A stretch of 64,000 nt of DNA from Patescibacteria group bacterium (GTDB taxonomy: Bacteria; Patescibacteriota; WWE3; UBA101185; UBA10185): positions 260,023 through 324,022 of the forward strand of contig JBMORU010000001.1 of the NCBI GenBank assembly GCA_049322215.1, in the 5' to 3' direction. Position 1 is the stretch's first letter; each line of letters begins with the position of its first letter. Shown here piece after piece: positions 1 through 22,159 of the stretch. The translations under genes were made by a program, and so were the position numbers. Below the pieces are notes generated by a model. That model was given only the letters and a program-made list of their open reading frames with translations, made no database searches and was not told the origin of the DNA.

Positions 1-560
1 CCTTCGTAGCTGCCATTGGCGTTTTCGAGTAAGGGCCAGTTTCGATGACTGTGATAAGTATAAATAAACTGCCCCATACATGTTGCTCCAGATTTGTAGT
101 TTTTTATGGTTTCGCACACGCCGTTTTGATACCGCATGGCATTGAAACCACTTTCAACCAAAATCATTGAGCCTATCTTGTTCCAGGGGACATTTTGGTT
201 GTAGGCTTCATCCTTAAAGGCGTTGATCATTTCTAACCTTGAAGGACCACAACCGTCACCGTCAGCTAAAATGTAAGGCACTCCATTGTCAGTGAAAACG
301 TAGTTGTTGAAGTTTTCTTGCCCTACAATTTTAATAACTTCTTCTACCGAAACTGCAACAAATTCGATGTCGTTCACGGTTACCGTAATGGCACCTACTT
401 CTGTGCTTATGGTTGAAAAAGCATTGGCTGCCATTGGTATTGATGTTGGTGGTTGTTTGGTTGGTGTGATTGTTGCCTGTGGTGTTGGTTCTACCTTTGC
501 TGTTGCACTGCAGGCTACAAGCAAAAGCATAATCATTGTTAGCATCAAGCTTTTTTTCAT
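1..560 (-). CDS. Lipoprotein, N-terminal part (gene runs off the window start); signal peptide with LVAC lipobox, Pro/Thr linker, then AFSTI..TVTV.DI module
   Basis: Minus-strand ATG at 558-560 preceded by AAGGAG; translation MKKSLMLTMIMLLLVACSATAKVEPTPQ... is open to the window edge; not in the ORF track because it is truncated. Confidence 0.55.
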   Translation of the reverse strand, partial: MKKSLMLTMIMLLLVACSATAKVEPTPQATITPTKQPPTSIPMAANAFSTISTEVGAITVTVNDIEFVAVSVEEVIKIVGQENFNNYVFTDNGVPYILADGDGCGPSRLEMINAFKDEAYNQNVPWNKIGSMILVESGFNAMRYQNGVCETIKNYKSGATCMGQFIYTYHSHRNWPLLENANGSYE

Positions 561-571
561 GCTTGTCTCCT

Positions 572-1489
572 TTAGTATGTATACATATTAGCTGGGTTCA
601 CATGGTACATGTATCCATTTTCCGTGAGTATTACAACAGAGTTGTGTACATGCGTACCCGATCCATGCTGGTTATTGGTATACCTAGTTACTACTCCACC
701 GCTTGTATATCCTGTGTTTCCTTGGCGTCCAATTTGGGTTCCTGCTGTTATGCGATCTCCCGGTACTGGGTAAGGGTGCCCTGCATCTTCAAACATCATA
801 TGTCCCGAAATTGTCAGAATTATAACCTCTCCGGTACTAGATGCTGTTTGAGCTTCGGGTGGTAAGTTTGAAACAGCAATTTTGCTTGCGCAAACTACTG
901 TTCGTCCTGAAACATCAAATTCCCAGGTTAGTCCACCTTCTGCATTGCCGTCATAGCCTAAGTTGTCGAATGTTCTCCAAACGACGCACTCGGATTGGGC
1001 AATTATGGGAGCACCTTGACCCCCGTTACAGACGATATCGTAGCCTGAATGTCCTCCACTTGGGTTAAACCCTTGTGTAGGATCATAACCTCCTGTACAT
1101 GGTGATGTAATAGAAGTTACGACTGGCAAATCTAAATCTCTGATACTTGCACCAGCAACTACCATTGATCCAATATTAGGTACCGATCCCTCGCCAATTA
1201 CAGCGCCTTGCGGGTTTGTCCAATTATTGATATCTCCCACAAGAACTGTCATGTAAATGGGACTCACCTCAATGATGATGTCCTCACTTACTAACGAGCT
1301 ATCTACACGGCCGGTTTCGGTTCCGATCGTGGAGAAAGCAAGCTCGGCTGTGGGTTTTGGCGTTTCGGTTGGCACAGGAGTTGGTGACGGTACTGCTGTC
1401 GGACTGGTTGGTTGCTCATTAGATGGAATACATCCAACCAGAAGCAACACTACCAGAAGGTATTTGATTACCTTTGTTGTTGCTTTCAT
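572..1489 (-). CDS. M23-family metallopeptidase lipoprotein
   Basis: Signal peptide plus LVGC lipobox; Pro/Thr linker; HxxxD (GGHSGYDI) and HxH (GTHVHNS) M23 motifs; stop lies 12 bp upstream of the next gene start. Confidence 0.8.
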   Translation of the reverse strand: MKATTKVIKYLLVVLLLVGCIPSNEQPTSPTAVPSPTPVPTETPKPTAELAFSTIGTETGRVDSSLVSEDIIIEVSPIYMTVLVGDINNWTNPQGAVIGEGSVPNIGSMVVAGASIRDLDLPVVTSITSPCTGGYDPTQGFNPSGGHSGYDIVCNGGQGAPIIAQSECVVWRTFDNLGYDGNAEGGLTWEFDVSGRTVVCASKIAVSNLPPEAQTASSTGEVIILTISGHMMFEDAGHPYPVPGDRITAGTQIGRQGNTGYTSGGVVTRYTNNQHGSGTHVHNSVVILTENGYMYHVNPANMYTY

Positions 1490-1678
1490 AGAACTACTCT
1501 CCTTATTTGGTTTTCAAACTGCTCGATAATTATTTCTTAACGAAGAATTGAATCTCCCTTCGTTTCTGGGTTTAAATAAAATTCCTGTTTAAACTCAGAA
1601 GTAAGGGGACGAAACAGAATTAGAGTTTTTATTTAAAACTTCCAACTCTGTTTCGTCGTATTCTTTTACCTGTTTCCG

Positions 1679-2998
1679 TTAGTTTTCGAACGGGTCTAGG
1701 TCGAAGAATCCCAAAACTTTACGAGATACATCAGCTATAGTTGTTGCGTTGTCGTTGTTATCAAGGAATAGCTGAGACAAGGGTGGCTTATTAATTTCAT
1801 AGACTAGAAGAAACGTATAGTTTTTCACTTTACCATTACGTGTTTCACGTATTGTGGTGAGCACAAACGGCGTTTCATACGTTTTTCCAAAAGCAGTTAC
1901 GGTTGCAAAGTGTTCTGATACCAGCTCGTAGTTTGCGTTGGTGTGTTCCCCATGTAGCCACGTCCAAATATCTTTTGCCATAATTACATATGAGGCGGGA
2001 GATATTTGGAAGCTCAGTACTTCTTGATCTCCAAGCATTGGGGGTACTACTAAGGAATCGTTGCTTGTTACTTCCTGTGGCGCCGTGTTAGCAAAATCCG
2101 TTCCTGCAATTGATTCAGCTGGTTGCGGATTAAGCTGTGGTTCTGGTAAGGGTTCTGGCTCAGGCTCGGGAGCGTTGTTTTGTTGAGGTTGTTCGCTGGG
2201 CTGATTGTTGTTTTCTGGCGCAGGCTGTTCTTCTGGGCCTAAAACTTGTTCTCGCAGGTTTTCCATTTCTGGGCCAACTGCGTTTACAAGTTGGTTGTAG
2301 AGATCTGTGTTGTCTTTGAGGTTTGGGTCTACAACCACACCATAGAATAAATCCGTAGCGTTTCCCCCTAACGAAGCTGTTGCATGCATTGCATTGATTA
2401 GCCAGGTGAAGTCCATTTCTTGCACGGGTGTTGTTTTGATTGTTACCTCCCACCCATACAAGTAACTGTCTACAGTTTGCTGTGCACTGAAGTTACCTCC
2501 TGCTGCAGCTTGCTGTAGCTTACCTCCATATAAGTAAGTTTCTTCCTGGTTGCCACTTTGCCACGCCACGTTAAAGTTATTTGCCCAGCCTGTTACGGTT
2601 TCTTGTGTTTGTTTGGGGGTAAGCCCATCAAACATAGAAATCATTCGATGCTGTTCAATTACTTCGGTGGCGAGGATTGGGATATCCTGAACGGTTACTG
2701 TGACTCTACCTTGATTACTCGTGGTAGAGAAAGAGTTTGCCGCTGCGGTCATTTCGCTTGCAGGTTGATCCTTGGCATTTGGCAATTCTGCTGCGGGCAC
2801 CATTTCGTTTGTTGTAGTTTCTTCCGGGTTAGCGCTACTGTTAAAAAAGTGGAATGGGTCAGTTACGATCAGAACAATTACCACTACACCAATTAGCACC
2901 CCAGAGGAGATCACTTGCTGTACTTGTTCACGTGTCCGTTGCAGAGTTGTTTTTGTTGTCTGCTGTTGTCTTGCTTGAGTATCTGTTTGCTTACTCAT
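1679..2998 (-). CDS. Membrane-anchored extracytoplasmic protein with Q/R-rich N-terminus, single TM, and PE/PQ-rich linker
   Basis: 439-aa ORF; N-terminal TM (VLIGVVVIVLIV); contains the AANSFSTTSNQGRVTVTVQDI module shared with the two downstream lipoproteins. Confidence 0.6.
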   Translation of the reverse strand: MSKQTDTQARQQQTTKTTLQRTREQVQQVISSGVLIGVVVIVLIVTDPFHFFNSSANPEETTTNEMVPAAELPNAKDQPASEMTAAANSFSTTSNQGRVTVTVQDIPILATEVIEQHRMISMFDGLTPKQTQETVTGWANNFNVAWQSGNQEETYLYGGKLQQAAAGGNFSAQQTVDSYLYGWEVTIKTTPVQEMDFTWLINAMHATASLGGNATDLFYGVVVDPNLKDNTDLYNQLVNAVGPEMENLREQVLGPEEQPAPENNNQPSEQPQQNNAPEPEPEPLPEPQLNPQPAESIAGTDFANTAPQEVTSNDSLVVPPMLGDQEVLSFQISPASYVIMAKDIWTWLHGEHTNANYELVSEHFATVTAFGKTYETPFVLTTIRETRNGKVKNYTFLLVYEINKPPLSQLFLDNNDNATTIADVSRKVLGFFDLDPFEN

Positions 2999-3012
2999 TT
3001 CTACTCCTTTTG

Positions 3013-5364
3013 CTACTTAGGATCGGCTGTTGTGCACGTTGCCAAATCCAAATAGCAGTCAAATGATACGCTAAAGTGCTGCGCTTCTTGGATGTTGGCT
3101 GGTACGCTGTCTGATAAGAACCAACCGTTACCTTCACCTGCATGGTAGTCAATACGATATTTTCCTGAAGAGTCCTTGCAGGCGTACCAGGTACCGTAGT
3201 TTAAGCCGCCGTCTGTTAGGTCTACAATTGCTAGCATATGCCAACCTGTTCTTTTGTAATCATACGAGGCCAAGTTTGTATCGCAGTTTGGGTCGGCGTT
3301 AGCAATTACTTCGGGGTATAGCTGATCTCCCATAACACCATTACTATCTGCATAGATAATTCCACGCGGATTTCTGTTGTTATCAAGATCCAACCAATAG
3401 TAGTTACGGGGGGCTATGTTGGACGGAATTGTTGAAACCAAATACCATCCAATTCCTAGCCTAGAAACCGGAATCCAGCCTTTGCATGTCCATTCTGAGG
3501 CGCCTACGTAAATTCTTACGGGGCCAAACGTAGGCATGCCTTTGTCTAATCCTGTTTCAGCAACAATGATATCCGGCCAGAATCTTTCAAACTCAAGTTG
3601 TGTGGTATTCTGGTCAATCATCCCCATGTATGGAAGCTCAGGGAATGGGATGTTTACACAGGGATCAGGTGTGGGGCTTGGTGTAAACGTTGGTGCTGGT
3701 GTTTCTGTTGGGGCCGGTGTTAACGTAGCTGTTGCAGTAGGTAATACCACTTGTGCAGGATCAAAGTGCTGTGTTTGCGGTTGTGGTGTTGCTGTTTGCT
3801 GAATCTCCACAGTAATCGGTTGTGCTGCAGCTTTTAAGGTGTTTACATAACCGGAAAATCCATTAATACGTACAGGACTTCCTAACGCTGCCAAATTGCC
3901 ATTTACGGCGTTGACCGCGTTGTTGAATCTTCCTTCGTACTTTTGAGCTTCGGTCCAGTTAGGTCCTTCGGGTGTAGCATCTAGGCGCAGGTTTTGATAA
4001 ACACGCACCAGATTAAAATACAGCCCGTCTTTTTCGCCGTCTGTTAGTTCATTACCCTCGATAAGGCGTTTAGCCGTTTCGAGCATTAAATCTGCCTGTG
4101 CCGCTTCGATGATGGGTTGAGTACCTTCCGGCGGGTAAGCCATAGATTGCACTCTGGTAAGGAATCCCTCAGGAACGTAGTTTCCATTGGCGTCCACGTG
4201 TCCCGCTTGTAACCAGTCTAAAGCAATGTTGTACGATTCTTCTACACCTGTGGATTCTTCACTTCCGATCAGTAATGCCGAGAAGTCAACTTTTGCAGCA
4301 CCGGTGCCATTGTTTGCATTGGCGCGCGCTTGGTTGGCTTGGTTACCTAACTCTACTGCCGGCAAAATAAACTGGTTGATCACCTGGTTTATTTCTTCAA
4401 CGCCTTGAGCGGTGATTGCCGGGTTGAATTCAGGTAAAGCTGGTGCATCAACAACGGTGTTATTATATGCATCGACTTGGCCTTGATCAGGATGTGGTGT
4501 CGGTGTGCTGTTGGTATTAAGATCTACCATAGCTGCCTGAGTGTTTCCACCTTTAGCGACTAAGGTTTCAAGCAAACCACCGAAGTTACCGTTTTTAAGT
4601 CCGGAAATTAAGATCATGGAAGCTACAGCTGTGACGATAATCAGCGGATAAGCAACTTTACGGATGATGGCCGGTTTTCCCTCGCTTTGAACGTGGACGT
4701 AACCTGCAATCACAATCGCGATCAAAATTGGTAACCACTGCGTAAGTTGCGTTGCCAGGGCTGCTACGACGAAAAAACAAACCAGGCCAAGCGCTATGTA
4801 ATTACCATGTTGTTTAAACAAGGCAACCCATTTTTGCACTTGATAGGCTTCCTCTGAAACGGCTTTTGGTGCTTGAATGCTAGGTACTTTAGAAAAGAAT
4901 CCTGCGGCACCGCTTTCACCATCCTGCTTTTGTGCTTTTTCCGTAGGTTTTGCTTTGGTTTTAGGCTGAGCATGGCTACCCGAAAGCGTGAATACCGTTG
5001 TTGGTTTCCACATCTTTTTGGTATAAACCATATAGCCAGAGACTGCCGTAGTTGTGATCCAGGAAAACACCCCTTTCCACCACATGAAATTATGCATTTC
5101 TTGGGTGTACCAGTATGGGCCTGTGTTCATAACCCAGACATAAAACGCTCCAAATAGAAGCGTGACTAATAAAGTGATCAAAAAAACTTTGTTTTTCTTT
5201 GACTCTGTACTTGTTTTTTTGACCCAGCCTTTCTCCACAAGAATGCTTAATGCAAGTGGAGAAAGCTCTTTAAGACTTTTTTGCTGGTCAGAATGTTCCA
5301 TTTTAGACCATTCTTGCAACAACTTTCTGTCTTTTGAACTCAACGTTTTAGTTGCACTAGTCAT
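3013..5364 (-). CDS. Polytopic membrane protein, paralog A (cytoplasmic N-terminus, TM bundle, Pro/Thr linker, unique C-terminal extracytoplasmic domain)
   Basis: 783-aa ORF; AAGGAG RBS; shares a 100% identical ~130-aa core and ~55-60% flanking identity with ORF 5553..7796. Confidence 0.7.
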   Translation of the reverse strand: MTSATKTLSSKDRKLLQEWSKMEHSDQQKSLKELSPLALSILVEKGWVKKTSTESKKNKVFLITLLVTLLFGAFYVWVMNTGPYWYTQEMHNFMWWKGVFSWITTTAVSGYMVYTKKMWKPTTVFTLSGSHAQPKTKAKPTEKAQKQDGESGAAGFFSKVPSIQAPKAVSEEAYQVQKWVALFKQHGNYIALGLVCFFVVAALATQLTQWLPILIAIVIAGYVHVQSEGKPAIIRKVAYPLIIVTAVASMILISGLKNGNFGGLLETLVAKGGNTQAAMVDLNTNSTPTPHPDQGQVDAYNNTVVDAPALPEFNPAITAQGVEEINQVINQFILPAVELGNQANQARANANNGTGAAKVDFSALLIGSEESTGVEESYNIALDWLQAGHVDANGNYVPEGFLTRVQSMAYPPEGTQPIIEAAQADLMLETAKRLIEGNELTDGEKDGLYFNLVRVYQNLRLDATPEGPNWTEAQKYEGRFNNAVNAVNGNLAALGSPVRINGFSGYVNTLKAAAQPITVEIQQTATPQPQTQHFDPAQVVLPTATATLTPAPTETPAPTFTPSPTPDPCVNIPFPELPYMGMIDQNTTQLEFERFWPDIIVAETGLDKGMPTFGPVRIYVGASEWTCKGWIPVSRLGIGWYLVSTIPSNIAPRNYYWLDLDNNRNPRGIIYADSNGVMGDQLYPEVIANADPNCDTNLASYDYKRTGWHMLAIVDLTDGGLNYGTWYACKDSSGKYRIDYHAGEGNGWFLSDSVPANIQEAQHFSVSFDCYLDLATCTTADPK
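4580..4968. repeat. Near-identical ~390-bp direct repeat, copy A (inside paralog A)
   Basis: DNA is essentially identical to 7010..7398; encodes KTKAKPTEKAQ...NGNFGGL in both proteins. Confidence 0.8.
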
Positions 5365-5427
5365 TTACATCTCCTTATAGATTTCACTAGTTTGGGATTC
5401 TTCATTTGTCAAAAATGCTATTATTAC

Positions 5428-5476
5428 TCTCAATTTAAGTCAGCAAACTTTGTTAAGCTTGTTGGCTTAAGGGAGA
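5428..5476 (-). promoter_or_regulatory. Conserved leader element with TTAAGC-N6-GCTTAA palindrome upstream of paralog A; candidate TTGACA -35 lies between it and the RBS
   Basis: About 50 bp are ~90% identical to 7861..7910 at the same distance from the start codon; preceded by a long imperfect hairpin at 5477..5524. Confidence 0.5.
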
Positions 5477-5552
5477 GCCTGAACTTTATGCATGTATTTA
5501 TTTTTAAATGCATAAAGCTCAGGTCATAGTTACAACTGGTTATTTGTTATGT

Positions 5553-7796
5553 CTAGGGTGCGTTCACTGGCTGGAAGGTAAAGGCGTCATACTCAATGCC
5601 ATCTTTCCAGTAGGTGAAGGTTTCCTCTGCATTGGGCTTCAATACAAATTGACCTACCCCAGGAGCAGCGTCGACAGCCATAACACCATCCCAACCCGGA
5701 TACGAAACCCAATAGTGTCCGCAGTAAGTACTGGTATACGTTACCGTAATCACTACATCACTTGTATACTCATGAGCTCGTATCAGTGCGAATCCAAATC
5801 CAGGCCAGGCTTCTATTTGATGTCCAAGCACTACAGTAGTTGTGTCTCCAACTGCGATGTGTCCGGGTTCAGGTCCATTTGGGCCTTGAACAATAAGAAC
5901 GCTACCTACACCATTTACATTACTTCTCACGTTGTAATGCGGGGGCTGAGGGGGCTCTAGCAGATCACACCAGATTACTTCGTTTCCACTTGGATTTGGA
6001 GCTGCCACTGTGGGATTCACAGGGAATACTTGCTGCGGCTCTAAAGTTGGCACAAGTGTAGGCCATGGCGTCATTGTAGGAGCTGTCGTTGGAACCACCA
6101 CGGGCACATCTGTTGGCCAAGGCGTGTTGCTAGGTACTGGCGTTTGCGTCGCCGTAGGCTGTACCACGTTTTCTGGGTTGAACTGCTGCGTAGGCATTGG
6201 TGTTGCCGTTTGCTGCACTTCCACAGTAAGTGGTTGTGCTGCCGACTCCAGTTTACCTGCAAAGTTATCCAGCAAGGGTAGTCGTGCTTGGGAGCCAAGT
6301 CCGGCGAGTTCACTGTTAACAATGTTTGCTGCAGCGTTGTACCTATTCTCATATAGCTTTGCCGCTTCCCAATCTTGGTGGTTTAATTCCAGAGACTGAA
6401 GCATCAACACCAAGTTCAGGTAAGCACCATTCAACTCGTAGGAGCTTGATGCGTAGTGAGTCCCTTGCAAAAGGCGCGCTGCTTCTTGCGAAAGCGTTGT
6501 ACCTTCAATAGGTTCTCCAATGATTAGCCGTTTTGCTAAGTTCTCTAAGCGGGCTTTATCTTCTACGCTGATGATCGGTACTGAGCCGTCAGTTGGTTCT
6601 GCCATACTTGCGAGGCGCTCAATGTACCCACGTGATACATAAGTGTTGTCTGCATTCACGTGTCCTGACATCAACCAGTCTGCAGCAACGTTGAAGCTTT
6701 CTAATACACCTGTGCTTCCCGCTTCACCGTTGAGTAACGGTCCAAAGTCGATTTGTGCTGCTCCAGTGCCGTTGTTAGCACTTGACCGGTAGGTATCCGC
6801 TTCCAAGGCTAAGGTAACGGCAGGGATAACGAACTGATTCGCTACCTGACCAATTTCCTCGGCTCCCTGGGAGGTGATTGCCGGATTGAACTCTGGCAGC
6901 ACGGGCGCATCAACTACTCCTTGGTTGTAGGCATCAATAGCACTGGTGTCTACGCTTGCTTCTACCACTTCTGTTTCTGTAACGTTGTTGGCGCTAAAGT
7001 TGAATAAGCCACCGAAGTTACCGTTTTTAAGTCCGGAAATTAAGATCATGGAAGCTACAGCTGTGACGATAATCAGCGGATAAGCAACTTTACGGATGAT
7101 GGCCGGTTTTCCCTCGCTTTGAACGTGGACGTAACCTGCAATCACAATCGCGATCAAAATTGGTAACCACTGCGTAAGTTGCGTTGCCAGGGCTGCTACG
7201 ACGAAAAAACAAACCAGGCCAAGCGCTATGTAATTACCATGTTGTTTAAACAAGGCAACCCATTTTTGCACTTGATAGGCTTCCTCTGAAACGGCTTTTG
7301 GTGCTTGAATGCTAGGTACTTTAGAAAAGAATCCGGCAGCACCGCTTTCACCATCCTGCTTTTGTGCTTTTTCCGTGGGTTTTGCTTTGGTTTTATGTCG
7401 TATTTGCTCTTCTGGAAGTGCATAGGTTGCTTCAGGCTTCCACATTTGTCGTTTGATAGCTAAGGTGCTAGAACAGGACAGCATAACCAGCCAGGTCAAA
7501 ATACCTTTCCACCAAACGAATCCGTGCATTTCCTGTGTATACCAGGATGGGCCGGTTGTCATAACCCAGGCATAAAACATTCCTAGCAGAAGTGTTCCAG
7601 CCAAAAAAGCAAGCGTTACCCTTTGTAGCAACGACCATTCTTTGGTGACGGAAAGTTCTTTCTTTTCCACCAGCAAATCAAGCGCTGCCTGCGAAAGGTC
7701 TCGCTCTGTCAGTTGTAACTTTTCAACGTTCGTTAAGCCTCGCCAACCCCGAAGGTGTTTGCGATCGGCTTCACTTAAGGTTGTTTTCTTACTCAT
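5553..7796 (-). CDS. Polytopic membrane protein, paralog B (same architecture as A, different C-terminal domain)
   Basis: 747-aa ORF; identical core block; divergent C-terminus (..HYWVSYPGWDG..). Confidence 0.7.
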   Translation of the reverse strand: MSKKTTLSEADRKHLRGWRGLTNVEKLQLTERDLSQAALDLLVEKKELSVTKEWSLLQRVTLAFLAGTLLLGMFYAWVMTTGPSWYTQEMHGFVWWKGILTWLVMLSCSSTLAIKRQMWKPEATYALPEEQIRHKTKAKPTEKAQKQDGESGAAGFFSKVPSIQAPKAVSEEAYQVQKWVALFKQHGNYIALGLVCFFVVAALATQLTQWLPILIAIVIAGYVHVQSEGKPAIIRKVAYPLIIVTAVASMILISGLKNGNFGGLFNFSANNVTETEVVEASVDTSAIDAYNQGVVDAPVLPEFNPAITSQGAEEIGQVANQFVIPAVTLALEADTYRSSANNGTGAAQIDFGPLLNGEAGSTGVLESFNVAADWLMSGHVNADNTYVSRGYIERLASMAEPTDGSVPIISVEDKARLENLAKRLIIGEPIEGTTLSQEAARLLQGTHYASSSYELNGAYLNLVLMLQSLELNHQDWEAAKLYENRYNAAANIVNSELAGLGSQARLPLLDNFAGKLESAAQPLTVEVQQTATPMPTQQFNPENVVQPTATQTPVPSNTPWPTDVPVVVPTTAPTMTPWPTLVPTLEPQQVFPVNPTVAAPNPSGNEVIWCDLLEPPQPPHYNVRSNVNGVGSVLIVQGPNGPEPGHIAVGDTTTVVLGHQIEAWPGFGFALIRAHEYTSDVVITVTYTSTYCGHYWVSYPGWDGVMAVDAAPGVGQFVLKPNAEETFTYWKDGIEYDAFTFQPVNAP
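7010..7398. repeat. Near-identical ~390-bp direct repeat, copy B (inside paralog B)
   Basis: Matches 4580..4968 with only a few edge mismatches. Confidence 0.8.
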
Positions 7797-7860
7797 AAGT
7801 TGTTTTACTCCTTATTTTGGTATGTTTACTTATTATGAGTCGTTTAATTCATTTAGTTCT

Positions 7861-7910
7861 CTCAGTTTAAGTCAGCAAACTTTATTTAAGCTTGTTGGCT
7901 TAAGGGAGAG
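7861..7910 (-). promoter_or_regulatory. Conserved leader element with TTAAGC-N6-GCTTAA palindrome upstream of paralog B
   Basis: Homologous to 5428..5476; flanked by the hairpin TCCGAATTG...CAATTCGGA at 7911..7960. Confidence 0.5.
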
Positions 7911-7983
7911 TCCGAATTGCAACAGTATGTTTTTTGAAAAAACTTACTGCCACAATTCGGATGTCATTATTTAGGTTACTTTG

Positions 7984-8487
7984 TTAGCCACTGAGACGCA
8001 CATATGTGAACAAACCAAAAACTACGATCACAATTTGCGTAACGTAGAAGACGGTCGCCCATAAAGGTTGTAAACGTCCTTCTTCTGTTCTCATAAATGC
8101 TTTGGAACCAAACAGGACGATCATTAGGAGAACGGCTGTGCTTCCCCAATACAGTGGTTCAAAGGCCAGTGAATTGAATAGCCATGTTCCCGGTTTTGGT
8201 TGAGGAATGATCCATGTCCATATGCCTAGCCAAATGTAGGTAGTGCCTTCTTTGGTTATTGCATAGTGTCCCAGACGCACCACGATCATAGCAAGCCAAT
8301 AGACGGTGAATAAAAGTTCTGGGAACTTGTAAAACACCGGATAGGTGATTCGATCATATGTGTCTTGTTTCAGTACTTTTAGCACGTTTGTTTGGCGTCG
8401 TTGCTGTGGCTGGTTTCGATTACGTTGTTGTGTATTATTCGTCATTTTCTTCACCTCCGTCGTCAGGGAATGCACCGACTTCTTCAA
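7984..8487 (-). CDS. Membrane protein with Q/R/N-rich cytoplasmic N-terminus
   Basis: 167-aa ORF; 3-4 predicted TM segments; codon usage matches the island. Confidence 0.5.
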   Translation of the reverse strand: MKKSVHSLTTEVKKMTNNTQQRNRNQPQQRRQTNVLKVLKQDTYDRITYPVFYKFPELLFTVYWLAMIVVRLGHYAITKEGTTYIWLGIWTWIIPQPKPGTWLFNSLAFEPLYWGSTAVLLMIVLFGSKAFMRTEEGRLQPLWATVFYVTQIVIVVFGLFTYVRLSG

Positions 8488-9523
8488 CTTCTATGTGTCT
8501 AGCTTTGTCGGCAGTATCTCCTTCTGTTGCTTGATTCAATCCCAGCATGTTTCCAATAGGTGTGTTGATAAGGAACTTTGCTGCCAGCGCGGTTATAAGG
8601 CCACCATTCTCTACCATCCATACTGCTGCTGCTGTTTCCGGTGAAAATCCTGCACCTTTCGCAATTTCTCCGATGGCTTCACCTTTCTCACGCATAGCAT
8701 GTTTAGCAGGCGTTCCAGTGTCTTTGTCGTCTACACGCTGGATGGTAAATATGAAGCTTTTTGGATCAATGCCTGTTTCCGTAATGACCTTTCTATTTAA
8801 ACCATATCGGAATGGTGACTGTGCCTTCTTACGAAGTTGTTGTTCTCCGGTTTCAAGGCTTTCCTCACCAAGTACTATGGCAATAAAGTCATCGATAAAG
8901 GGTCCTATGAAGGAAATAAACCCTTTGTCATTGCCAATTTGCTCATATTTATCCTTATCGTCTGGATTTGTGCTTAGGGTCCAACCAATACGCCAAGTCA
9001 CCTTGTCGTATTCAACACGGGATTTAGTCTTAGGTTCAACAGTTGTTCCCGAATACGAGCGTATGGCCTCCCGACTGATAAAGAATCCACGCAGAAAATA
9101 ACCGGGTACTAAGCTCAGAAAAACAACAATAACTAGGAACAACCAGGGAAGACCATCAAATATCCCAGGGGAATTTGCGGCTTCTGTTTGTGTTTCTTCT
9201 GCTGTTTCTTGCGCTATGGGTAATGCATCTGTGCGTACGTAGCGTACGGGAGCGTTTCCACTGCCATCATCGCTAGGACGCCCACGAAGCTCAACGCGTT
9301 GTACGCCTTGCACTTCGTTCCATGCATTGTCCGCCCATGGGTTATCGTTTTCTTTCACCACATCCGTTGGTTGGGCCTGGTTAAAGGCACTATTTGGATC
9401 GTGGTACAGATTTGTTCCTGTAGGTATCTCTTGGCCACCACCGCATGCTACAAGCAATGCGATTAGTAAGGCCAAGAGAATACCCTTGAATATTTTGTTT
9501 GCCAAAGGCATTCTCTTGTTCAT
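8435..9523 (-). CDS. Lipoprotein with an internal TM segment; unknown function
   Basis: Signal peptide plus LVACGGG lipobox; 362 aa. Confidence 0.55.
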   Translation of the reverse strand: MNKRMPLANKIFKGILLALLIALLVACGGGQEIPTGTNLYHDPNSAFNQAQPTDVVKENDNPWADNAWNEVQGVQRVELRGRPSDDGSGNAPVRYVRTDALPIAQETAEETQTEAANSPGIFDGLPWLFLVIVVFLSLVPGYFLRGFFISREAIRSYSGTTVEPKTKSRVEYDKVTWRIGWTLSTNPDDKDKYEQIGNDKGFISFIGPFIDDFIAIVLGEESLETGEQQLRKKAQSPFRYGLNRKVITETGIDPKSFIFTIQRVDDKDTGTPAKHAMREKGEAIGEIAKGAGFSPETAAAVWMVENGGLITALAAKFLINTPIGNMLGLNQATEGDTADKARHIEVEEVGAFPDDGGEENDE

Positions 9524-9538
9524 TGTCTTACTCCTTAT

Positions 9539-10330
9539 TTATTCTTCGTCGTTTTCGCGCATGGCATAGGCTACAATTACCGCTACAAACAACACGCCAA
9601 TCCCCAGGATGTAGGTGTTGATCGTAGACAGTGACGTTGCCAAATCAGCCAAAACACGGCCAACAGCTACGCTGTAAACGAATTGTGGTATAGCCATACC
9701 CGCTTTCATCAAAATGGCCATGAGCGGGGCTGCTAGTACCAAAATGCCCAGGGCAAGCAGACTGATGTCTTTTGCCACTTCCAGGGCTGTTCGTACTTTT
9801 TCTTCAATCTTCGGTGAAAGCATTTTTCCAAAAACTACTACGCCTGCAATCACCAGAAGAGGCAGACCTTGCGCAATAAAGTTAGCGGTGCCGATACTAC
9901 GAGCATAAAACACTGACACCACTACCAGTAATCCGGCAAGCCACAACCACAGGTATTTAAACTGAAAAGCATCTCCTGACCGACCCAGCGCAGAACTGAA
10001 AAGACCTGCAATGAAGGCTCGGTTAAAGTATGCAACGATTAGTGCTAACAGCACAAAGAACCACAGTGAAGTGATCCCGTCTGCAGCGCCTGATACCTGG
10101 TTGATGCCGTTGACCGCGTCTGTAGTAAGGTCGCTAAGGCCGTCAATGGTTGTCAGTTTTTGGCCAATTTCGGTCTCGCGAATGGCTGTTCCACCGCGTG
10201 CGATGGTTAAGAGCCATGAGGGTGCTCCCCAACGTTCTAGTGCGGGGGAAGCCACTGACAAAATCACCAGTACAACAAATGCCCCAAACAGTAGTTTGAG
10301 CACAGTCTTGAGTGAAAAAATCTTTGACAT
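9539..10330 (-). CDS. Polytopic membrane protein; unknown function
   Basis: 263-aa ORF with many hydrophobic helices; first gene of the minus-strand island run. Confidence 0.55.
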   Translation of the reverse strand: MSKIFSLKTVLKLLFGAFVVLVILSVASPALERWGAPSWLLTIARGGTAIRETEIGQKLTTIDGLSDLTTDAVNGINQVSGAADGITSLWFFVLLALIVAYFNRAFIAGLFSSALGRSGDAFQFKYLWLWLAGLLVVVSVFYARSIGTANFIAQGLPLLVIAGVVVFGKMLSPKIEEKVRTALEVAKDISLLALGILVLAAPLMAILMKAGMAIPQFVYSVAVGRVLADLATSLSTINTYILGIGVLFVAVIVAYAMRENDEE

Positions 10331-10646
10331 TTACTTACTCCTTATTATTTTGAGTTTTATTTCGTGACTAACAAATTGTCAACTTGCAATAAGTTGCAAA
10401 AAAAGCAACACGTATTCCGTCTTGCTCACACAACTTATTTCAATTATCAGTTTAGAGCCAAACCACAAGGGTTTTTTGTGGATCCAAACTTCTTTTATTA
10501 TACACTATAGGCTACACTTTTGTCCATCCTTATAGTGTTTTTTCATTTTAACACTATTCGTAAGTAAAATGAAATTTAAAAAGTCTCTATATCCTATAAC
10601 AACAGCAATTTATCACTATTGGTTATTTTCCCTTTAAATCTTAGGG

Positions 10647-10683
10647 TAAAAAAAAAGCCCTCAAAGGGCTTTCTCATTTTTTA
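10647..10683 (-). terminator. Rho-independent (bidirectional) terminator downstream of rplY
   Basis: GCCC-TCAAA-GGGC hairpin flanked by an A9 run on one side and a T-run on the other. Confidence 0.7.
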
Positions 10684-10687
10684 AAAG

Positions 10688-11362
10688 TTATGCTTCTTTA
10701 TCTTTGTTTTTATTATCTGCGCCTTCTTCTTCATCCTCTTCTTCTGTTGCTTCTACACTTGCTATTAATTCTTCTTCACTTACTTCATCTCCAGCCTCTT
10801 CTTGCATTTCTGCATAAGCTATTTTTACTACTAAATCATCATCTTCATTATCAACAATTGTTATTTTACTCTTATCGTAATTTAATTCTCCTACGGTAAT
10901 AAATGCATCTACTTCTGTTAAGCCAGATACGTCTACTTCAAAAGCTGAAGGTAAGTCTGCAGGTAAAGCTTCTACTGCAACAGTGTTTAAAAGTGTAAGT
11001 AACATACCCTCACCTGTTTTAATAATTGGCGATTTTTCTTCACCAATTACTTCTACGGGTATATCAGCAGTAATTTTTTCTGTTAAGTCCACTTTATGAA
11101 AATTTACGTGAATTATTTTTCCTGATACAGGATGATATTGAACCTCTGATATTAGTACTTTTTGATTATCGTTTTCCCATTTTAAGTCTATAAGTGAGGT
11201 TTCGCCTGCTTTTTTAAATACTCTTACAAAATCAACGTAATCAATTGATATTGGCATTGAATCCATGCTTTTTCCAAATACCACAGCTGGCACTATTCTT
11301 TCGCGCCTTAGTTGTTTTGTTTTTTTACCTAATTTTTCTCTTTTTTGTACAGCAATTTGCAT
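10688..11362 (-). CDS. rplY: 50S ribosomal protein L25/general stress protein Ctc, with acidic C-terminal tail
   Basis: N-terminus ..KKTKQLRRERIVPAVVFGK.. matches the L25 signature; 224 aa. Confidence 0.85.
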   Translation of the reverse strand: MQIAVQKREKLGKKTKQLRRERIVPAVVFGKSMDSMPISIDYVDFVRVFKKAGETSLIDLKWENDNQKVLISEVQYHPVSGKIIHVNFHKVDLTEKITADIPVEVIGEEKSPIIKTGEGMLLTLLNTVAVEALPADLPSAFEVDVSGLTEVDAFITVGELNYDKSKITIVDNEDDDLVVKIAYAEMQEEAGDEVSEEELIASVEATEEEDEEEGADNKNKDKEA

Positions 11363-11661
11363 ATAGATTTCTTTTTAAGCTTTTGGTGTATATCCAAAAG
11401 TTCGTTATAACTAATACTTTTAATGCCTAAAAACTTTTTTACTTCTTCCCCGGTTAAGTCCGATATTATGGGCATAGCACCGCTTCCCGAAAGGGTTATG
11501 GTTACCATGCTTTCTGCCTGGCATTTTGGGCAAATAACATGTGCTATTAATGCAACATGTACATGACTTATTGGAACAAGTTCTCCACCTTCTAAGCTGT
11601 TCCCACATCTGTAGCAAGTTGTTTTAGCTAACTGTTCATTTATGATTCGTTTTTCTATCAT
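11329..11661 (-). CDS. Small zinc-ribbon-like protein (CxxC...CxxC)
   Basis: 110-aa ORF with CYRCG and CPKC pairs; its 3' end overlaps the rplY start by 34 bp. Confidence 0.4.
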   Translation of the reverse strand: MIEKRIINEQLAKTTCYRCGNSLEGGELVPISHVHVALIAHVICPKCQAESMVTITLSGSGAMPIISDLTGEEVKKFLGIKSISYNELLDIHQKLKKKSICKLLYKKEKN

Positions 11662-11732
11662 AATTTCGCCCAGTGGGACGGTCTAGATTCTACTTTAGAC
11701 CGTAGTTAAAGTCAACTAAGGCAGATAATACA

Positions 11733-14700
11733 TTATTTTAATTTAATTGCAAATTCTTGATCTGTGTTTAGTGTTCCTTTATATTCAACCCTTCCTTCGT
11801 ATGTTTCTGCAGGAGGTTGTGTAAAATCTATATTTAACCCAAAGGGAGAGTTAAATAGTACATTGTAGCTGTAGTCTTGCGTTCCCGGTTGTTTTTGCCA
11901 GTATAGTTTGTAGTCTTTAAACTCTTTTGATAAAGATAAAGATTCTGGCAAATCATATTTAAGAACTAAAGTTACTTTTTCTTGCGGATTTACTGTGAAG
12001 TTGGTTCCAAATGAAGTATATTCACCTGCTTGTTCTATAGTTATTTCCTCAATTAGATCTTTCTCAAAGTTATCGTTTCTTTTTAATTCAGCACCTGTTA
12101 ATTTTGTACCCTTTTGAGTTAATACTCTTACATAATCTGTGTAAGGTCCTCCAGGCCAAGCACTTGAATCTCCAGTGTGTATATAATCAAGATATAATTC
12201 TGCTCTTAATACGCCATCTCGTGTTTCTGACAAAATGTTGTAGTACATTTCATTTTTAACATAATAGTTTGCTTTAGTTCCACCTAAATTGGCGTTTACT
12301 ACATATAAATAGTCGCCTGTAGTTTTTGCTAACTCTCCTGTCCAACCATTTTCCTGTAGTTTTGCGTTAAAAGATGTATTTGGTAAGTACACCATGAAGT
12401 GCTTTTCTTCCATTGCGGTTGTTAATGTTGTAACAAGCTGGGGTAATTTTTCGCTTTCCAGGGCAATCATTTTTTCTAAAAGTTTACTTCCTAATATTGT
12501 TAAAAACGATTTCTTTTGTGTGGATCCCTCCTCATAGTTGAATTCGCTATGATATTGGGTTACTTCATACATATTTTCAGCGTTAACCTCCTGATTGTAT
12601 GCGGTTAAAAATACGGGTCCTGTGACGCTTAATAACTCTTGTGCAAAATATAAATCTATTGCTAATACGCCATCAAATTGGCTTTCATCTACTTTGAAAA
12701 ATAGATCCTCTATAGTTTTTGCAGATTCAGGGAAACTTGGATTCCAGTTAGCATTTCTTATGTGAAGATTTTCCTCTTTTAATAAGTCTACTATTGGTTT
12801 AGGTGCTGGAACTTCTATACTTCTGATGTCTATTTGTCCATCTGGATTATATATGTCGTCTATTGCTAGTTTTGCTATTTTCCCTTTTTCTAGTTCTAAT
12901 ACTGCATAAGACCCTATAAACCCTCCGGTAGGTCTTAGCTCATTACTATTTTGTAATAAAATTAGGTACCTTTTTTTGCTTTCGGCTCCAAGTATTTGGG
13001 GTAAATCTGATGTTAACGTTGCAGCAATGTCTAAACCTTTTTCCATTTTGGCAATAGCCGCATCATAAGATATAACTTCGTCTTTTATGTTTGAGGGTAA
13101 ATTATTAAGATTAGTTTGTTTTAAGTCGCCAATTGCAAACTGCAAACTTTCACGTGCACTTGATAATTGCAATTTGGCTTCAGCTAATTGCTGAGCATCA
13201 AATTCTGTCTCAGTGTTGCTTTCTATTGCGCCCCATACTTTAAAAAATGGGTTTGAAGCTTTAGCTGTACTATGTATAGCTCTTGAAAAATGTTTTCCTG
13301 AATCAATTACTTTTTGAGTTGCTTCGTACTGTTCTCTTTTTCCTACAATAGTGAACACCCAACGTAGTTTAGACAGGGCACCTTGAGTTTTTGATAATTC
13401 CTCATAGGCTATATTAGCTGAATTTACAGCTTCTTCTGAATTTAAATTACTTAAGCTTTTTACATAGTTAACTAGCTCAGTTCTAGCATTTTGTGCATGA
13501 GTATAGGTTTGCACTGAGGGTACTGCAATACTAACAATTAAAAACGCTATAAATATTCCCAAAATCATTAAAAACACGTTTTTATTTAAACTTTTTATAG
13601 AGAGTTTAGATAATTTGGTTGAAACTTTTGTATTGTTTTGCTGTACCTCGGCATTAAAAGGAAGTAGCCCTGGTGTATTTTCAGTTGTTTCCTGTGCTGT
13701 TGGGGGAGGTGCTACGCTAAAAATATCTTGCTCATTCTTTGTGGTTTCTTCTGATAAAGATGATAAAGTTTCAGTTGTTTCGCTTTTTACATCTGCCAAG
13801 CTAAATTGAGTTTCCTGTTCTCTTTTTTTCAACTCTACTTTTGGTGTTTCCGATTGAATTTGAGAACTTTTATCTCTGGAAAACTTTTCTTTTATTTTTG
13901 TGAAGGCACCTTTGTTATCATTTATTGATTTTGTTACGGCGATGTTTTCTTGAGCTATAGAAAGTACTTGCTGTGGTTCGTGCTGCGTATTTTTTCTTTC
14001 TACTATTTTAGATAGTTTAAAACTATTTGTGTTTATTTCATAACCAAACCACTTAAGTGTTTTTATTATTCCTTCTTTATAAGAAATTTTTGGATACCAG
14101 CCCAGGTGTTGCAATCCTTCGCGCTCACTTACATTTGAATCTTTGGGTTTTATAGGATCTTCCTTATCTTCAAAACTAACTTTTAGTTCTCTGTCGGCTA
14201 GTCCTTTTAACAAGTATGCTGTTTCAATAACTGTATGGGGTTCTTTATCTACCAGTGAGTATATTTTTCCTTTTGTATCATCATTAAAAAGTGCTTTAGC
14301 TATACCGGCAACTGCATCAGTTATGTACAAGTAATACTCTCTATCATTGCCTTCTCCATAAACAGTTAGGTCTTGATTTTCTAGCAAAGCTTTCATTAAA
14401 CGACCTAAATCTCCTGTGGAATTTAAATTCATGCGTGGTCCAAACACCTCTGGAAGTCTTACTATGCGTACATCTGTTTGGTACTTTTTGTAATATTCCC
14501 AAACTAAGGCTTCTGCAAATCTTTTAGCTTCGGTTAAAGAGTACTTTTTTTCTTCCTTTGGCGTCTTTCCAAAATAATTGTCTAAATCAATTGATGACAT
14601 TAATCCTTGGTACACATTTGTAGATGATCCAAGCAAAAATTTTGCATCTGAGGTTCTTGCTAGGTCTAACAATGCCTTTGTACCCACAGCATTAGTTAGT

Positions 14701-15044
14701 AAAGATTCTAAATCGGCATTGTCTGTGTTAGATAAATAAGTTTCTATACCTGCCAAGTGAACAATGTAATCTACACTTTGAATTCTTTCAGGCAAACCTT
14801 GATTTATATCTACATCGAAAACAGCAAATTTTGGGTTTTTTAAGAGGGAACTTATATAAACGTCTTTTCCGGTTGTGAAGTTGTCTAAAACAACTACCCG
14901 AGCATCTTTAAGTAGCAAAAATTCTGCTAAATGAGAGCCTAAAAAGCCTGCTCCTCCAGCTATAAGGGCAGTGGGTGCGTTAGGTGTCTTTTTGATCACA
15001 TTTTCTTTAGGCATAGGCAGCTTTTTTGTTGTGCTTGTACGCAC
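11733..15044 (-). CDS. Fusion protein: NAD-dependent epimerase/dehydratase (extended SDR) - TM segment - large extracytoplasmic DUF4012-like domain
   Basis: GGAGFLGSHL Rossmann motif at the N-terminus; central TM (FLMILGIFIAFLIVSIAV); C-terminal region contains KRYLILLQNSNELRPTGGFIGSY, recalled as the DUF4012 signature. Confidence 0.75.
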   Translation of the reverse strand: MRTSTTKKLPMPKENVIKKTPNAPTALIAGGAGFLGSHLAEFLLLKDARVVVLDNFTTGKDVYISSLLKNPKFAVFDVDINQGLPERIQSVDYIVHLAGIETYLSNTDNADLESLLTNAVGTKALLDLARTSDAKFLLGSSTNVYQGLMSSIDLDNYFGKTPKEEKKYSLTEAKRFAEALVWEYYKKYQTDVRIVRLPEVFGPRMNLNSTGDLGRLMKALLENQDLTVYGEGNDREYYLYITDAVAGIAKALFNDDTKGKIYSLVDKEPHTVIETAYLLKGLADRELKVSFEDKEDPIKPKDSNVSEREGLQHLGWYPKISYKEGIIKTLKWFGYEINTNSFKLSKIVERKNTQHEPQQVLSIAQENIAVTKSINDNKGAFTKIKEKFSRDKSSQIQSETPKVELKKREQETQFSLADVKSETTETLSSLSEETTKNEQDIFSVAPPPTAQETTENTPGLLPFNAEVQQNNTKVSTKLSKLSIKSLNKNVFLMILGIFIAFLIVSIAVPSVQTYTHAQNARTELVNYVKSLSNLNSEEAVNSANIAYEELSKTQGALSKLRWVFTIVGKREQYEATQKVIDSGKHFSRAIHSTAKASNPFFKVWGAIESNTETEFDAQQLAEAKLQLSSARESLQFAIGDLKQTNLNNLPSNIKDEVISYDAAIAKMEKGLDIAATLTSDLPQILGAESKKRYLILLQNSNELRPTGGFIGSYAVLELEKGKIAKLAIDDIYNPDGQIDIRSIEVPAPKPIVDLLKEENLHIRNANWNPSFPESAKTIEDLFFKVDESQFDGVLAIDLYFAQELLSVTGPVFLTAYNQEVNAENMYEVTQYHSEFNYEEGSTQKKSFLTILGSKLLEKMIALESEKLPQLVTTLTTAMEEKHFMVYLPNTSFNAKLQENGWTGELAKTTGDYLYVVNANLGGTKANYYVKNEMYYNILSETRDGVLRAELYLDYIHTGDSSAWPGGPYTDYVRVLTQKGTKLTGAELKRNDNFEKDLIEEITIEQAGEYTSFGTNFTVNPQEKVTLVLKYDLPESLSLSKEFKDYKLYWQKQPGTQDYSYNVLFNSPFGLNIDFTQPPAETYEGRVEYKGTLNTDQEFAIKLK

Positions 15045-15139
15045 TTACTCACTATTTAGTATATGGTTTTTATACTTCTATAACAAGGATAAAAAGGAGA
15101 AATTATAATAAATTACAGTTTTTAAGTTATAATCCCGTC

Positions 15140-15748
15140 ATGGAACTAAAAGATATAATCGAACTTTTAAAGAAAAACCGAGAGTTTCTTATTACAGTTT
15201 GCCTTTTTTTTATGTTTGTTGGGGTAGGTCTTTATTTTGCTTTACCAAAACGTTATACGGCTTCAGGGTCTTTTTATATTAAGCGCTTTGTTTATGAGTC
15301 GTCGCCTGAATTTTTTACTTATGAGGGATATTATGGGCAACAAGCTGCGTCATCTTATACAGATACAGTGATTGCACTGTTTGAAAGCGTAGATTTACAA
15401 AAAGCAGTTTTAGAAAAGCTAAATTTACAGACAACTGATGCTGAGTTACGTTCAATCAAAAGACGCATTAGAGTAAAAAAGGCTGGCCCACAACTGATAA
15501 CAGTGACTGTCAAAGGATCTACACAAAGTTTTGCAAACGATGTATGGAACGCCTTAGCTGAAGAAACACTTGCAGTTGTCGAAAACGTTAATGCAGAGGG
15601 AGATACAACCCTTTCAATTGAGAAATTATCAAGTGAGCCTGTTTTGCAACAAACTTACTCAAACGTTTTTATAAATGCCTTTATTGGACTTTCACTAGGG
15701 TTTATTATGTCTGTTGTTTGGTTATCATTTAAGGAATATTTAAATTAG
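15140..15748 (+). CDS. Wzz/polysaccharide co-polymerase-like chain-length determinant (two terminal TMs)
   Basis: TM near the N-terminus and at the C-terminus around a periplasmic domain; start chosen at the in-frame MELKD Met, but the ORF is open from 15026. Confidence 0.5.
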   Translation: MELKDIIELLKKNREFLITVCLFFMFVGVGLYFALPKRYTASGSFYIKRFVYESSPEFFTYEGYYGQQAASSYTDTVIALFESVDLQKAVLEKLNLQTTDAELRSIKRRIRVKKAGPQLITVTVKGSTQSFANDVWNALAEETLAVVENVNAEGDTTLSIEKLSSEPVLQQTYSNVFINAFIGLSLGFIMSVVWLSFKEYLN

Positions 15749-15757
15749 AGGAAGTTT

Positions 15758-16156
15758 ATGGAGTTAATATTGCATACTGATGGCGGTGCTCGAGGAAATC
15801 CAGGTCCTGCAGCTGCAGGAGTAGTTATAAGAAATAACAACAACGAGATTATAAAAGAACTAGGAAAGTTTTTGGGCACTAAAACAAATAATGAGGCTGA
15901 GTATATTGCTTTGTATTTAGGTTTAGCATCGTGTATTGCTTTAGGTGGTGCAAGTATTTCTTGTTTTTTAGATAGTGAGCTTATTGTTAAACAGTTAAAA
16001 GGGGAATACAAAGTTAAAAGCCCCGGTTTGAAGCCTTATTATGAGAAAGTGTTAGATTTAAGTAAAAAGTTTTCTAAAATTTCATATACTCACGTTCCAC
16101 GTGCAAAAAATGCTGAAGCAGATAAACTAGTAAACGAAGTGTTAGACGCTCAGTAA
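15758..16156 (+). CDS. Ribonuclease HI family protein
   Basis: HTDGGARGNPGPAAAG plus NNEAEY and a C-terminal D motif, typical of RNase H type 1. Confidence 0.85.
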   Translation: MELILHTDGGARGNPGPAAAGVVIRNNNNEIIKELGKFLGTKTNNEAEYIALYLGLASCIALGGASISCFLDSELIVKQLKGEYKVKSPGLKPYYEKVLDLSKKFSKISYTHVPRAKNAEADKLVNEVLDAQ

Positions 16157-16159
16157 CAA

Positions 16160-17077: not shown

Positions 17078-17184
17078 CAAGAAATCTCCCGTAAAGGGAG
17101 ATCTCAATAAATCCAAGTAAATGGACAGTTTATATTTTATGAATTAGCTCTGTTCTAACTACTAAACGTTTTTACCTTAACTCA

Positions 17185-17388
17185 TTATCTCATCATAAGA
17201 TCTGAGTCGTCTTCCAACATCATTACGTCTTTTTCAGCCATTGCGGGTACTTTAATAGTAACGTTTTGATTTAAGGAAATACTGTAGGCAGTTAATGCCA
17301 AGTTAGCTATGACTAAAGCCATAGTTGCTAGCGTTAGAATAAACTCTAAGTTCATATCATTTGATGTGTTTGAGTTTTTCTTAGACAT
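17185..17388 (-). CDS. Small membrane protein
   Basis: 67-aa ORF with one TM; in an otherwise gene-free interval. Confidence 0.35.
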   Translation of the reverse strand: MSKKNSNTSNDMNLEFILTLATMALVIANLALTAYSISLNQNVTIKVPAMAEKDVMMLEDDSDLMMR

Positions 17389-17457
17389 TACAAAAAGTAT
17401 GCACTAATTTAATATTTTGTACAAGAGAAATACGTAACTTTTGCTAAAATAGTATGA

Positions 17458-18414: not shown

Positions 18415-18463
18415 CTCTGCTCCAAATTTTAATTTACAAAATTTGAAACAGAGTTAGTGGTTT

Positions 18464-18883: not shown

Positions 18884-18927
18884 TTGTATCTCCTTTTAGG
18901 GTGGATATTTGGTTATAGTATTATAGG

Positions 18928-19890: not shown

Positions 19891-19898
19891 GTGTTCTT

Positions 19899-19930: not shown

Positions 19931-19943
19931 TCCGTGGCTTAAA

Positions 19944-21605: not shown

Positions 21606-21626
21606 TTAATAACCCTTTCTAATTAA

Positions 21627-22150: not shown

Positions 22151-22159
22151 TAAAGCCTG

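Follow-up and report, generated by a model that had tools for sequence, protein, structure and literature searches.

The window, as the stretch analysed here is termed, comprises 64,000 nucleotides of contig JBMORU010000001.1 from a Patescibacteria group bacterium (GCA_049322215.1). It carries an eight-gene cell-envelope operon for which the minus strand is the sense strand (locus tags ACOZAO_01390 and ACOZAO_01395 of the metagenome-assembled genome). In order of transcription, the operon encodes proteins of 263, 362 and 167 amino acids, the large paralogous membrane proteins B and A, a protein of 439 amino acids, an M23-peptidase-like lipoprotein and a protein of 308 amino acids. Three long spacers (187, 188 and 189 nt) precede B, A and the M23 peptidase gene and share one layout; the remaining spacers in the window part of the operon are at most 15 nt long or are replaced by gene overlaps. 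Each long spacer holds two hairpins, hp1 and hp2. An element of about 50 bp common to the leaders of A and B had been proposed to be either a shared operator for a dimeric regulator or a conserved RNA element of the 5' untranslated region that co-regulates the paralog family. Analysis shows it to be the second hairpin of a paired structure that is conserved between genes of such operons and most likely works as an intercistronic RNA. Neither an operator nor a paralog-specific switch is supported.

Layout of the leaders and their conservation

On the coding strand, both leaders run from the stop codon of the preceding gene through an A-rich spacer of 22-29 nt into hp1, a long and almost perfect hairpin, pass without a gap into the hp2 block and close with 62 nt that end in AAGGAG and the ATG. 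Alignment of the leaders showed that the shared layout described in the original prediction is real and that all of its features are present, with small corrections. The long imperfect hairpins noted at 5477..5524 and 7911..7960 were refined to the limits given in Table 1, and they are not separate features following the preceding gene but the first half of one two-hairpin module. The AAGGAG ribosome-binding site and ATG are in place, with the block 62 nt rather than about 65 nt from the start codon, and the element, thought to be about 90% identical, is 94% identical between the copies (49 of 52 columns). The palindrome TTAAGCCAACAAGCTTAA, on which the element was said to be centred, sits in the 5' half of the block.

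RNAfold analysis of the whole block predicts an imperfect hairpin of 19 pairs (-15.3 kcal/mol, z approximately -4) with the fold CUCUC-CC-UUAAG-C-CA-A-CAAGCUU-[loop]-AAGUUUG-C-UG-A-CUUAA-AUU-GAGAG. The borders of conservation coincide exactly with the base of hp2 and not with the palindrome. TTAAGC-N6-GCTTAA is a local palindrome within the 5' arm and loop of hp2 and is not its organising feature. The differences between A and B in hp2 (a 1-nt indel and a C/U change in the loop, and a U/C change in the 3-nt bulge) are all unpaired.

Outside the block, the two leaders agree no better than shuffled sequence (48-54%): identity is 50-54% for the segment preceding hp1, for hp1 and for the closing 62 nt. 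Four-fold synonymous sites of the paralogs, excluding the patch described below, are saturated (28-39% identity), and the probability of 49 identical columns out of 52 under neutrality is below 1e-6 (binomial, even at a background of 65%); neutral divergence therefore does not explain the identity of the hp2 block. A search of the 64-kb window allowing 3 mismatches located no further copy of either half (0 expected by chance).

A patch of 387 bp within the paralogs themselves (4577..4963 and 7009..7395), encoding a linker and transmembrane helices (residues 134-264), differs at only 3 DNA positions (99.2% identity) and matches at synonymous sites as well. Given the saturation of synonymous sites elsewhere in the paralogs, this patch is clearly the product of recent gene conversion. 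The Logan assembly was probably interrupted by it too, since L021, a contig from the same organism, begins inside paralog A. A diversity-generating retroelement or template repeat was considered for the patch and rejected, as there are only 3 mismatches (T/C, C/T and A/C) and transmembrane helices are encoded. With 3 differences in 52 nt, compared to 3 in 387 for the patch, hp2 lies outside this conversion event. Its identity between A and B could reflect either sequence-specific selection by a trans-acting partner or homogenisation by an older conversion event.

The third module lies in the spacer 1490..1678 (189 nt), upstream of the lipoprotein gene of 305 amino acids. Its hp2 shares a basal geometry with those of A and B, in which two 5-bp helices flank a 2x3 internal loop and a 1x1 mismatch leads into the stem.

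Table 1. Features of the envelope operon and its modules (positions in the window)
Feature	Position	Strand	Description
hp1 of leader A	5478..5523	-	18 pairs including one sense-strand G.U; -22.2 kcal/mol; without U tract; abuts hp2
hp2 of leader A	5427..5477	-	51 nt; 19 pairs: 5 bp, 2x3 internal loop, 5 bp, 1x1, 2 bp, 1x1, 7 bp, 4-nt loop
Leader of A	5365..5426	-	Unconserved, A-rich; TTGACA 5412..5407; ribosome-binding site AAGGAG 5376..5371
hp1 of leader B	7911..7961	-	23 pairs including three sense-strand G.U; -26.6 kcal/mol
hp2 of leader B	7859..7910	-	52 nt; differs from A only at three unpaired positions
Leader of B	7797..7858	-	Unconserved; ribosome-binding site AAGGAG 7813..7808
hp1 of third module	1608..1657	-	22 pairs; stem motif GAAACAG...CUGUUUC
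hp2 of third module	1556..1607	-	52 nt; sequence unlike A/B; abuts hp1
Paralog A	3013..5364	-	783 amino acids; multi-pass membrane protein with extracellular domain
Paralog B	5553..7796	-	747 amino acids; 56% identity to A
M23-peptidase-like lipoprotein	572..1489	-	305 amino acids; downstream of third module; homologue of Peptidase_M23 genes in syntenic operons; unrelated to paralogs
First operon gene	9539..10330	-	Preceded by likely operon promoter
Sigma-70-like promoter TGGACA-18-TATAAT	10497..10526	-	11/12 matches, best found; upstream of gene 9539..10330

Modules and operons in distant genomes

Scans of paralog A against Pfam, PHROG and NCBIfam gave no match, and a word-indexed protein search and a six-sequence profile search returned only the two paralogs. 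An exhaustive profile search identified remote homologues of a length similar to the paralogs, four of which (P0003, P0004, P0005 and P0007, at loci L030, L032, L034 and L036 of uncultured genomes) lie in syntenic operons. The remote homologues P0006, P0008, P0009 and P0010 were rejected as further operon members, not being syntenic. The common gene order is a membrane protein of about 270 amino acids, proteins of about 350-425 and about 140-150 amino acids, a spacer, the big protein, one to three genes, a second spacer, the M23 peptidase and a putative SLT-like protein, with the relatives carrying a single big gene. By BLASTP, the relatives encode homologues of the big proteins and of those of 362, 439, 305 and 308 amino acids, the best local matches reaching 22-32% identity; the exception is a 94-residue C-terminal match of 44% between A and the L030 protein.

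An hp1 followed by an hp2 after a gap of 0-2 nt was found in every big-gene spacer of the relatives (189 nt in L030, 146 nt in L032, 183 nt in L034 and 207 nt in L036) and in every M23-gene spacer where such a gene exists (168 nt in L030, 132 nt in L032 and 142 nt in L034), with spacer folding z-scores of -4.7 to -8.7. Counting those of the window, five genomes contribute ten modules, always at one or other of these two junctions. The same layout thus precedes an M23 gene unrelated to the paralogs, and it occupies both junctions of operons with a single big gene. The RNA element of the earlier proposal comes close, the block being a structured RNA in a conserved layout, but it is not a device specific to the paralog family.

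Between modules, hp1 and hp2 have a mean identity of only 48-51%, yet each forms 11-23 pairs. RNAalifold on MAFFT alignments retrieved compensatory pairs along with the basal part of hp1 and some of hp2; this covariance check supports the structure in part and includes no formal covariation statistic. The motif CCGAAY...RTTCGG lies at the base of the big-gene hp1 in leader B of the window, where it reads UCCGAAUU...AAUUCGGA, and in L030, L032 and L034. A second motif, GAAACAG...CTGTTTC, is present only in the hp1 of the M23 junction, in the window, L032 and L034 (0.02 matches expected per window); no copy was found in the rest of the window or elsewhere in the 41 fetched loci. The half-motifs of hp1 are variably spaced, in hairpins of 26-62 nt, as expected of a stem rather than of a site bound by a dimer. 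CGAAC...GTTCG was also considered as a LexA Cheo box and rejected, its halves being 16 to about 50 nt apart and not 4. The hp2 of L030 repeats the upper stem of the window hp2, CAAGCUUA...AAGUUUG, with the G.U pair retained.

The relatives' hp2 is more stable on the sense strand by 5-13 kcal/mol in all seven modules, with 2-5 G.U pairs, which argues for function in the mRNA. The hp1 copies of the window likewise favour the sense strand, although composition pushes the opposite way. Pairing of the pyrimidine arm of hp2 with the ribosome-binding site, as an anti-Shine-Dalgarno or decoy, was rejected: only about three of ten modules beat shuffled arms (fractions at or below the observed value 0.00, 0.02 and 0.07).

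As a stable hairpin following a stop codon, hp1 resembles the hairpin of an intrinsic terminator: it has 11-23 pairs and -20.7 to -26.6 kcal/mol, and starts 21-29 nt (window) or 6-48 nt (relatives; 48 in L036) downstream of that codon. A canonical terminator also has a U tract of about 7-9 nt directly behind the stem. A U-rich stretch follows hp1 in six of the seven relatives' modules, as a clean run of five or six U's, offset by 1-3 other bases, in five of them (the first 8 nt past hp1 reading ATCTTTTT, ACTCTTTT, CCTTTTTA and, twice, CCCTTTTT) and as an interrupted stretch in the M23 module of L030 (TTTCCATT). A terminator scan placed the best terminator-like site of the L032 operon at the hp1 of its M23 module. 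The pyrimidine or U tract after hp1 is at the same time the 5' arm of hp2, where it is paired to a purine-rich arm ending in GAG(AG). From these features, hp1 would be a terminator with an offset U tract, and as such should be leaky.

A single strong hairpin occupies each of the other, shorter spacers of the relatives, the spacers as a whole folding at -23.7 to -30.9 kcal/mol (L032 10236..10289, L034 10671..10765 and 11303..11369, L036 10404..10493). At least one of these single hairpins is followed by U's (in L032, ...CCUCUUUUC). The relatives' operons are thus punctuated by hairpins at nearly every non-overlapping junction.

The promoter of the window operon is likely the sigma-70-like site listed in Table 1. 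The leader of the first gene (10331..10480, minus strand) contains a hairpin followed by seven U's (GAGCAAGACGGAAUACGUGUUGC-UUUUUUU), nested in a longer stem (AAUAAGUUG...CAACUUAUU); it could be an attenuator, and its conservation in L030 is not apparent. The 3' end of the operon was seen in L021, in which one further gene is followed by a canonical terminator (hairpin and U8), convergent with leuS. The last two genes of the operon (572..1489 in the window; 4047..4973 in L021) encode the M23-peptidase-like lipoprotein and a protein whose relatives show weak similarity to SLT lytic transglycosylases; in L036, the M23-like and SLT-like genes are fused to encode one protein of 431 amino acids (11767..13062). 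This set of wall hydrolases and multi-pass membrane proteins resembles the wall-hydrolase accessory genes of Gram-positive secretion and conjugation systems, but no ATPase is present.

In all five genomes, the G+C content of the envelope operon exceeds that of its flanks by 6-12 percentage points (45% for window positions 1..10330 and 34% for 10331..64000). This compositional anomaly of the cluster persists although the neighbourhood next to leuS is conserved in two genomes. Directly upstream of the L25 gene and the operon, an open reading frame (11733..15044, minus strand) encodes 1103 amino acids with a domain of NAD-dependent epimerases/dehydratases fused to DUF4012. About 4.5 kb downstream of the homologous operon of L030 (GCA_964385105.1), an open reading frame of more than 1100 codons (19830..22253) runs off the locus and has a faint Cas12f1-like TNB match.

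Readings of the two-hairpin module

The best-supported reading, which we hold at about even odds, is that hp1 and hp2 form a conserved intercistronic RNA module within one envelope operon, with hp1 a leaky terminator or a 3'-protective hairpin, followed by a second hairpin. The whole operon would be transcribed from the promoter upstream of its first gene. At hp1, acting as a leaky intrinsic terminator, as a hairpin protecting the 3' end of the upstream segment or as both, some polymerases would stop, and those reading through would transcribe hp2 and so place the two helices side by side, ahead of an A-rich leader free of structure and the ribosome-binding site. In the read-through transcript the abutting helices would shield the upstream segment from 3' exonucleases, and after processing the downstream cistron would receive a structured 5' end ahead of its A-rich translation-initiation region. 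By partial termination and differential decay or processing of the mRNA, the modules may thereby set the relative dosage of three segments, namely the first three genes, the big membrane protein or proteins with the 439-amino-acid gene, and the wall hydrolases.

Several observations weigh against this reading. The window modules lack a U tract after hp1 (CTCTCCCT, CTCTCCCT and CCCTTACT), as does the big-gene module of L032 (GGACTACT), and transcription by mycobacterial RNA polymerase was not terminated by hairpins devoid of such a tract (PMC3993855). Canonical terminators with a U tract do exist in the window genome, one behind the L25 gene and another where the operon ends. On the sense strand, the three window copies of hp2 are less stable than on the other strand by about 7 kcal/mol (-15 compared to about -22 kcal/mol). 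The model also gives no specific reason for the existence of hp2, or for its 94% identity between A and B when hp1 is randomised. Finally, the stem bases CCGAAC and GAAACAG, conserved across very divergent genomes, hint at a sequence-specific recognition that a plain terminator or stabiliser would not need. In the window genome, the U tract appears to have been eroded to CUCUCCCUUAAG and CCCUUACUUCUG; since it is lost there, canonical terminators are used elsewhere and hairpins without U's failed in mycobacteria, the window modules probably act more as determinants of stability or processing than as terminators.

The main rival is a regulatory RNA, put-like or protein-binding, kept by its conserved stem sequences. 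The hp1-hp2 pair would act on RNA polymerase by processive antitermination, or would bind a dedicated RNA-binding protein or RNase, giving controlled read-through or processing; we consider this unlikely. In its favour, stem sequences at the same junction are conserved although the aligned proteins are mostly only 22-32% identical, hp2 is nearly identical between the paralog leaders while neutral sites are saturated, and the unusual geometry (5 bp/2x3/5 bp/1x1) is common to three window hp2 of different sequence. The two stem-loops also lie 0-2 nt apart in a long operon, in which the other spacers of the relatives carry single hairpins. Set against this, hp1 with its U-rich stretch looks like a terminator rather than an antiterminator, and the internal-loop geometry is not kept in the relatives, whose hp2 are near-perfect stems of 15-19 bp. 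A structural descriptor of the geometry, written after the copies had been seen, finds the three operon copies but was rejected, with about 2.8 matches per shuffled window. No window or relative sequence other than tRNAs passed the gathering score of Rfam 15 (below threshold, only generic miRNA-like hairpins appeared), and no candidate RNA-binding protein is apparent in the operon. The stronger form of this idea, in which the pair is an undescribed cis-regulatory RNA of a Patescibacteria-type envelope operon, recognised via the CCGAAC and GAAACAG stems and hp2 and actively switching the surface protein or proteins and the hydrolases, appears slightly less probable still.

As a DNA operator, TTAAGC-N6-GCTTAA would bind a dimeric regulator, and both paralogs would be controlled together through promoters situated in their leaders. 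The 6+6 palindrome is indeed exact and identical in both copies, three matches occur in the window at up to 1 mismatch where 0.66 are expected, and TTGACA is present downstream in copy A (Table 1), as had been noted. The third of these matches, however, is the only other window copy and a chance-level one with a single mismatch; the palindrome is absent from every homologous leader (L030, L032, L034 and L036), an outcome that the original prediction had itself named as refuting, and what is conserved is the whole 51-nt hairpin up to its base. In the contigs of 185,579 genomes (596 Gb), the exact 18-mer had 20 matches, approximately the number estimated by chance, and the two Patescibacteria-group matches that were read lie inside coding sequence. 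None of the three window module spacers holds a promoter of at least 9/12 matches; TTGACA has no usable -10 partner and no counterpart in B, and no conserved sigma-70-like promoter was found in or near the modules of the window and the relatives. Candidate promoters within the block (TTGCTG or CTGACT with TAATAG, TAGCAT or AATAAT) were rejected as weak, different between A and B, and absent from the relatives. The operator reading is thus very improbable. Somewhat less so, but still improbable, is a role of the window hp2 on the plus strand, as a cis-antisense RNA hairpin or a terminator of antisense transcription into the upstream gene. In its favour are the higher stability there and the A.C mismatches forming the 1x1 loops of the sense strand, which become G.U pairs on the plus strand and occupy the same stem positions in the independent copy of the third module. 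Strand differences of at least 6.5 kcal/mol are found, however, in 27% of stable 52-nt windows in this sequence, and the plus strand of the operon is T-rich, so the asymmetry is weak evidence and was rejected as proof of antisense function. Moreover, the hp2 of the relatives is sense-favoured throughout, and no plus-strand promoter or U tract accompanies the hairpin.

The least probable explanation regards the hairpins as DNA elements, either remnants of a mobile repeat, of the repetitive extragenic palindromic (REP) or bacterial interspersed mosaic element (BIME) kind or a miniature inverted-repeat transposable element (MITE), or attC-like recombination sites delimiting gene cassettes, with the identity of hp2 between A and B due to a gene-conversion tract. 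Gene conversion between the paralogs is demonstrably active, as the 387-bp patch shows, and the modules are paired imperfect palindromes between genes. Against this, in five genomes the syntenic operon carries the modules at the same two places, the relatives' G.U pairs on the sense strand point to RNA, and hp2 is not part of the 387-bp event. No repeated family was found either, in the 64 kb of the window or in viral contigs, genome or metagenome collections: the block has two copies in the window and none else there, genome contigs were covered by the exact 18-mer (above), its outer-stem pattern gave 8 unrelated matches in metagenome contigs and none in viral contigs, and the exact 23-mer is absent from viral contigs. 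The attC core sites RYYYAAC/GTTRRRY were not seen in hp1 or hp2 by eye, no pattern search having been run, and no recombinase domain was found among the window proteins scanned, those of the operon genes and of the two genes upstream.

Comparison with known systems

To our knowledge, almost nothing has been described of gene regulation in Patescibacteria (candidate phyla radiation). The operon pairs wall hydrolases (M23 and SLT-like) with multi-pass membrane proteins and surface proteins that are uncharacterised; these are plausible players in the cell-surface biology of an episymbiont, and the module could explain how structural proteins and potentially lethal hydrolases are dosed from a single promoter. 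Should it be only a leaky terminator and stabiliser, the mechanism would be ordinary and the lineage unusual; should the sequence-specific features reflect active regulation, the finding would be of higher interest. The ten modules may serve as a seed for a covariance model in searches for RNA motifs.

The put RNA of phage HK022 and the EAR element are cis-acting processive antitermination RNAs, with two adjacent stem-loops or a structured spacer in a long operon of the surface or polysaccharide type. The module has in common with them its two adjacent stem-loops within a long envelope operon, and differs in lacking sequence or Rfam similarity and in its terminator-like hp1; neither a pseudoknot nor a put-like conserved bulge was identified. 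The intercistronic RNase III sites of phage T7 are hairpins of about 20 bp between cistrons, in which asymmetric internal loops restrict cleavage to one strand. By analogy, the module hairpins may be compared to these in being long and intercistronic, the window copies having an asymmetric internal loop; unlike in the T7 sites, this loop is not kept in the relatives.

Abutting 'V-shaped' tandem hairpins are a recognised but rare class of predicted terminator (about 0.1% of cases) (PMC8355165). Like these and like leaky intra-operon terminators, the module consists of two unspaced hairpins after a stop codon, and the hp1 of most relatives has a base containing G+C and a U-rich stretch. Unlike V-shaped terminators, the modules are found at conserved junctions within an operon instead of closing it, their U tract (missing in the window) begins 1-3 bases late and doubles as the 5' arm of the second hairpin, and distant genomes share stem sequences.

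Protective 3' and 5' structures have been described to reshape expression within operons, as in malEF, papBA and many operons of E. coli, and intercistronic protective structures are conserved between related species (PMC5927463). Like the REP hairpins of malE-malF, the 5' stem-loop of papBA and the elements of Dar and Sorek 2018, the module places stable spacer hairpins between co-transcribed genes. REP elements are multi-copy sequence families, whereas the module hairpins are not multi-copy. The hallmark of malEF- and papBA-type cases, a stable spacer structure conserved among relatives, was found here in ten modules of five genomes.

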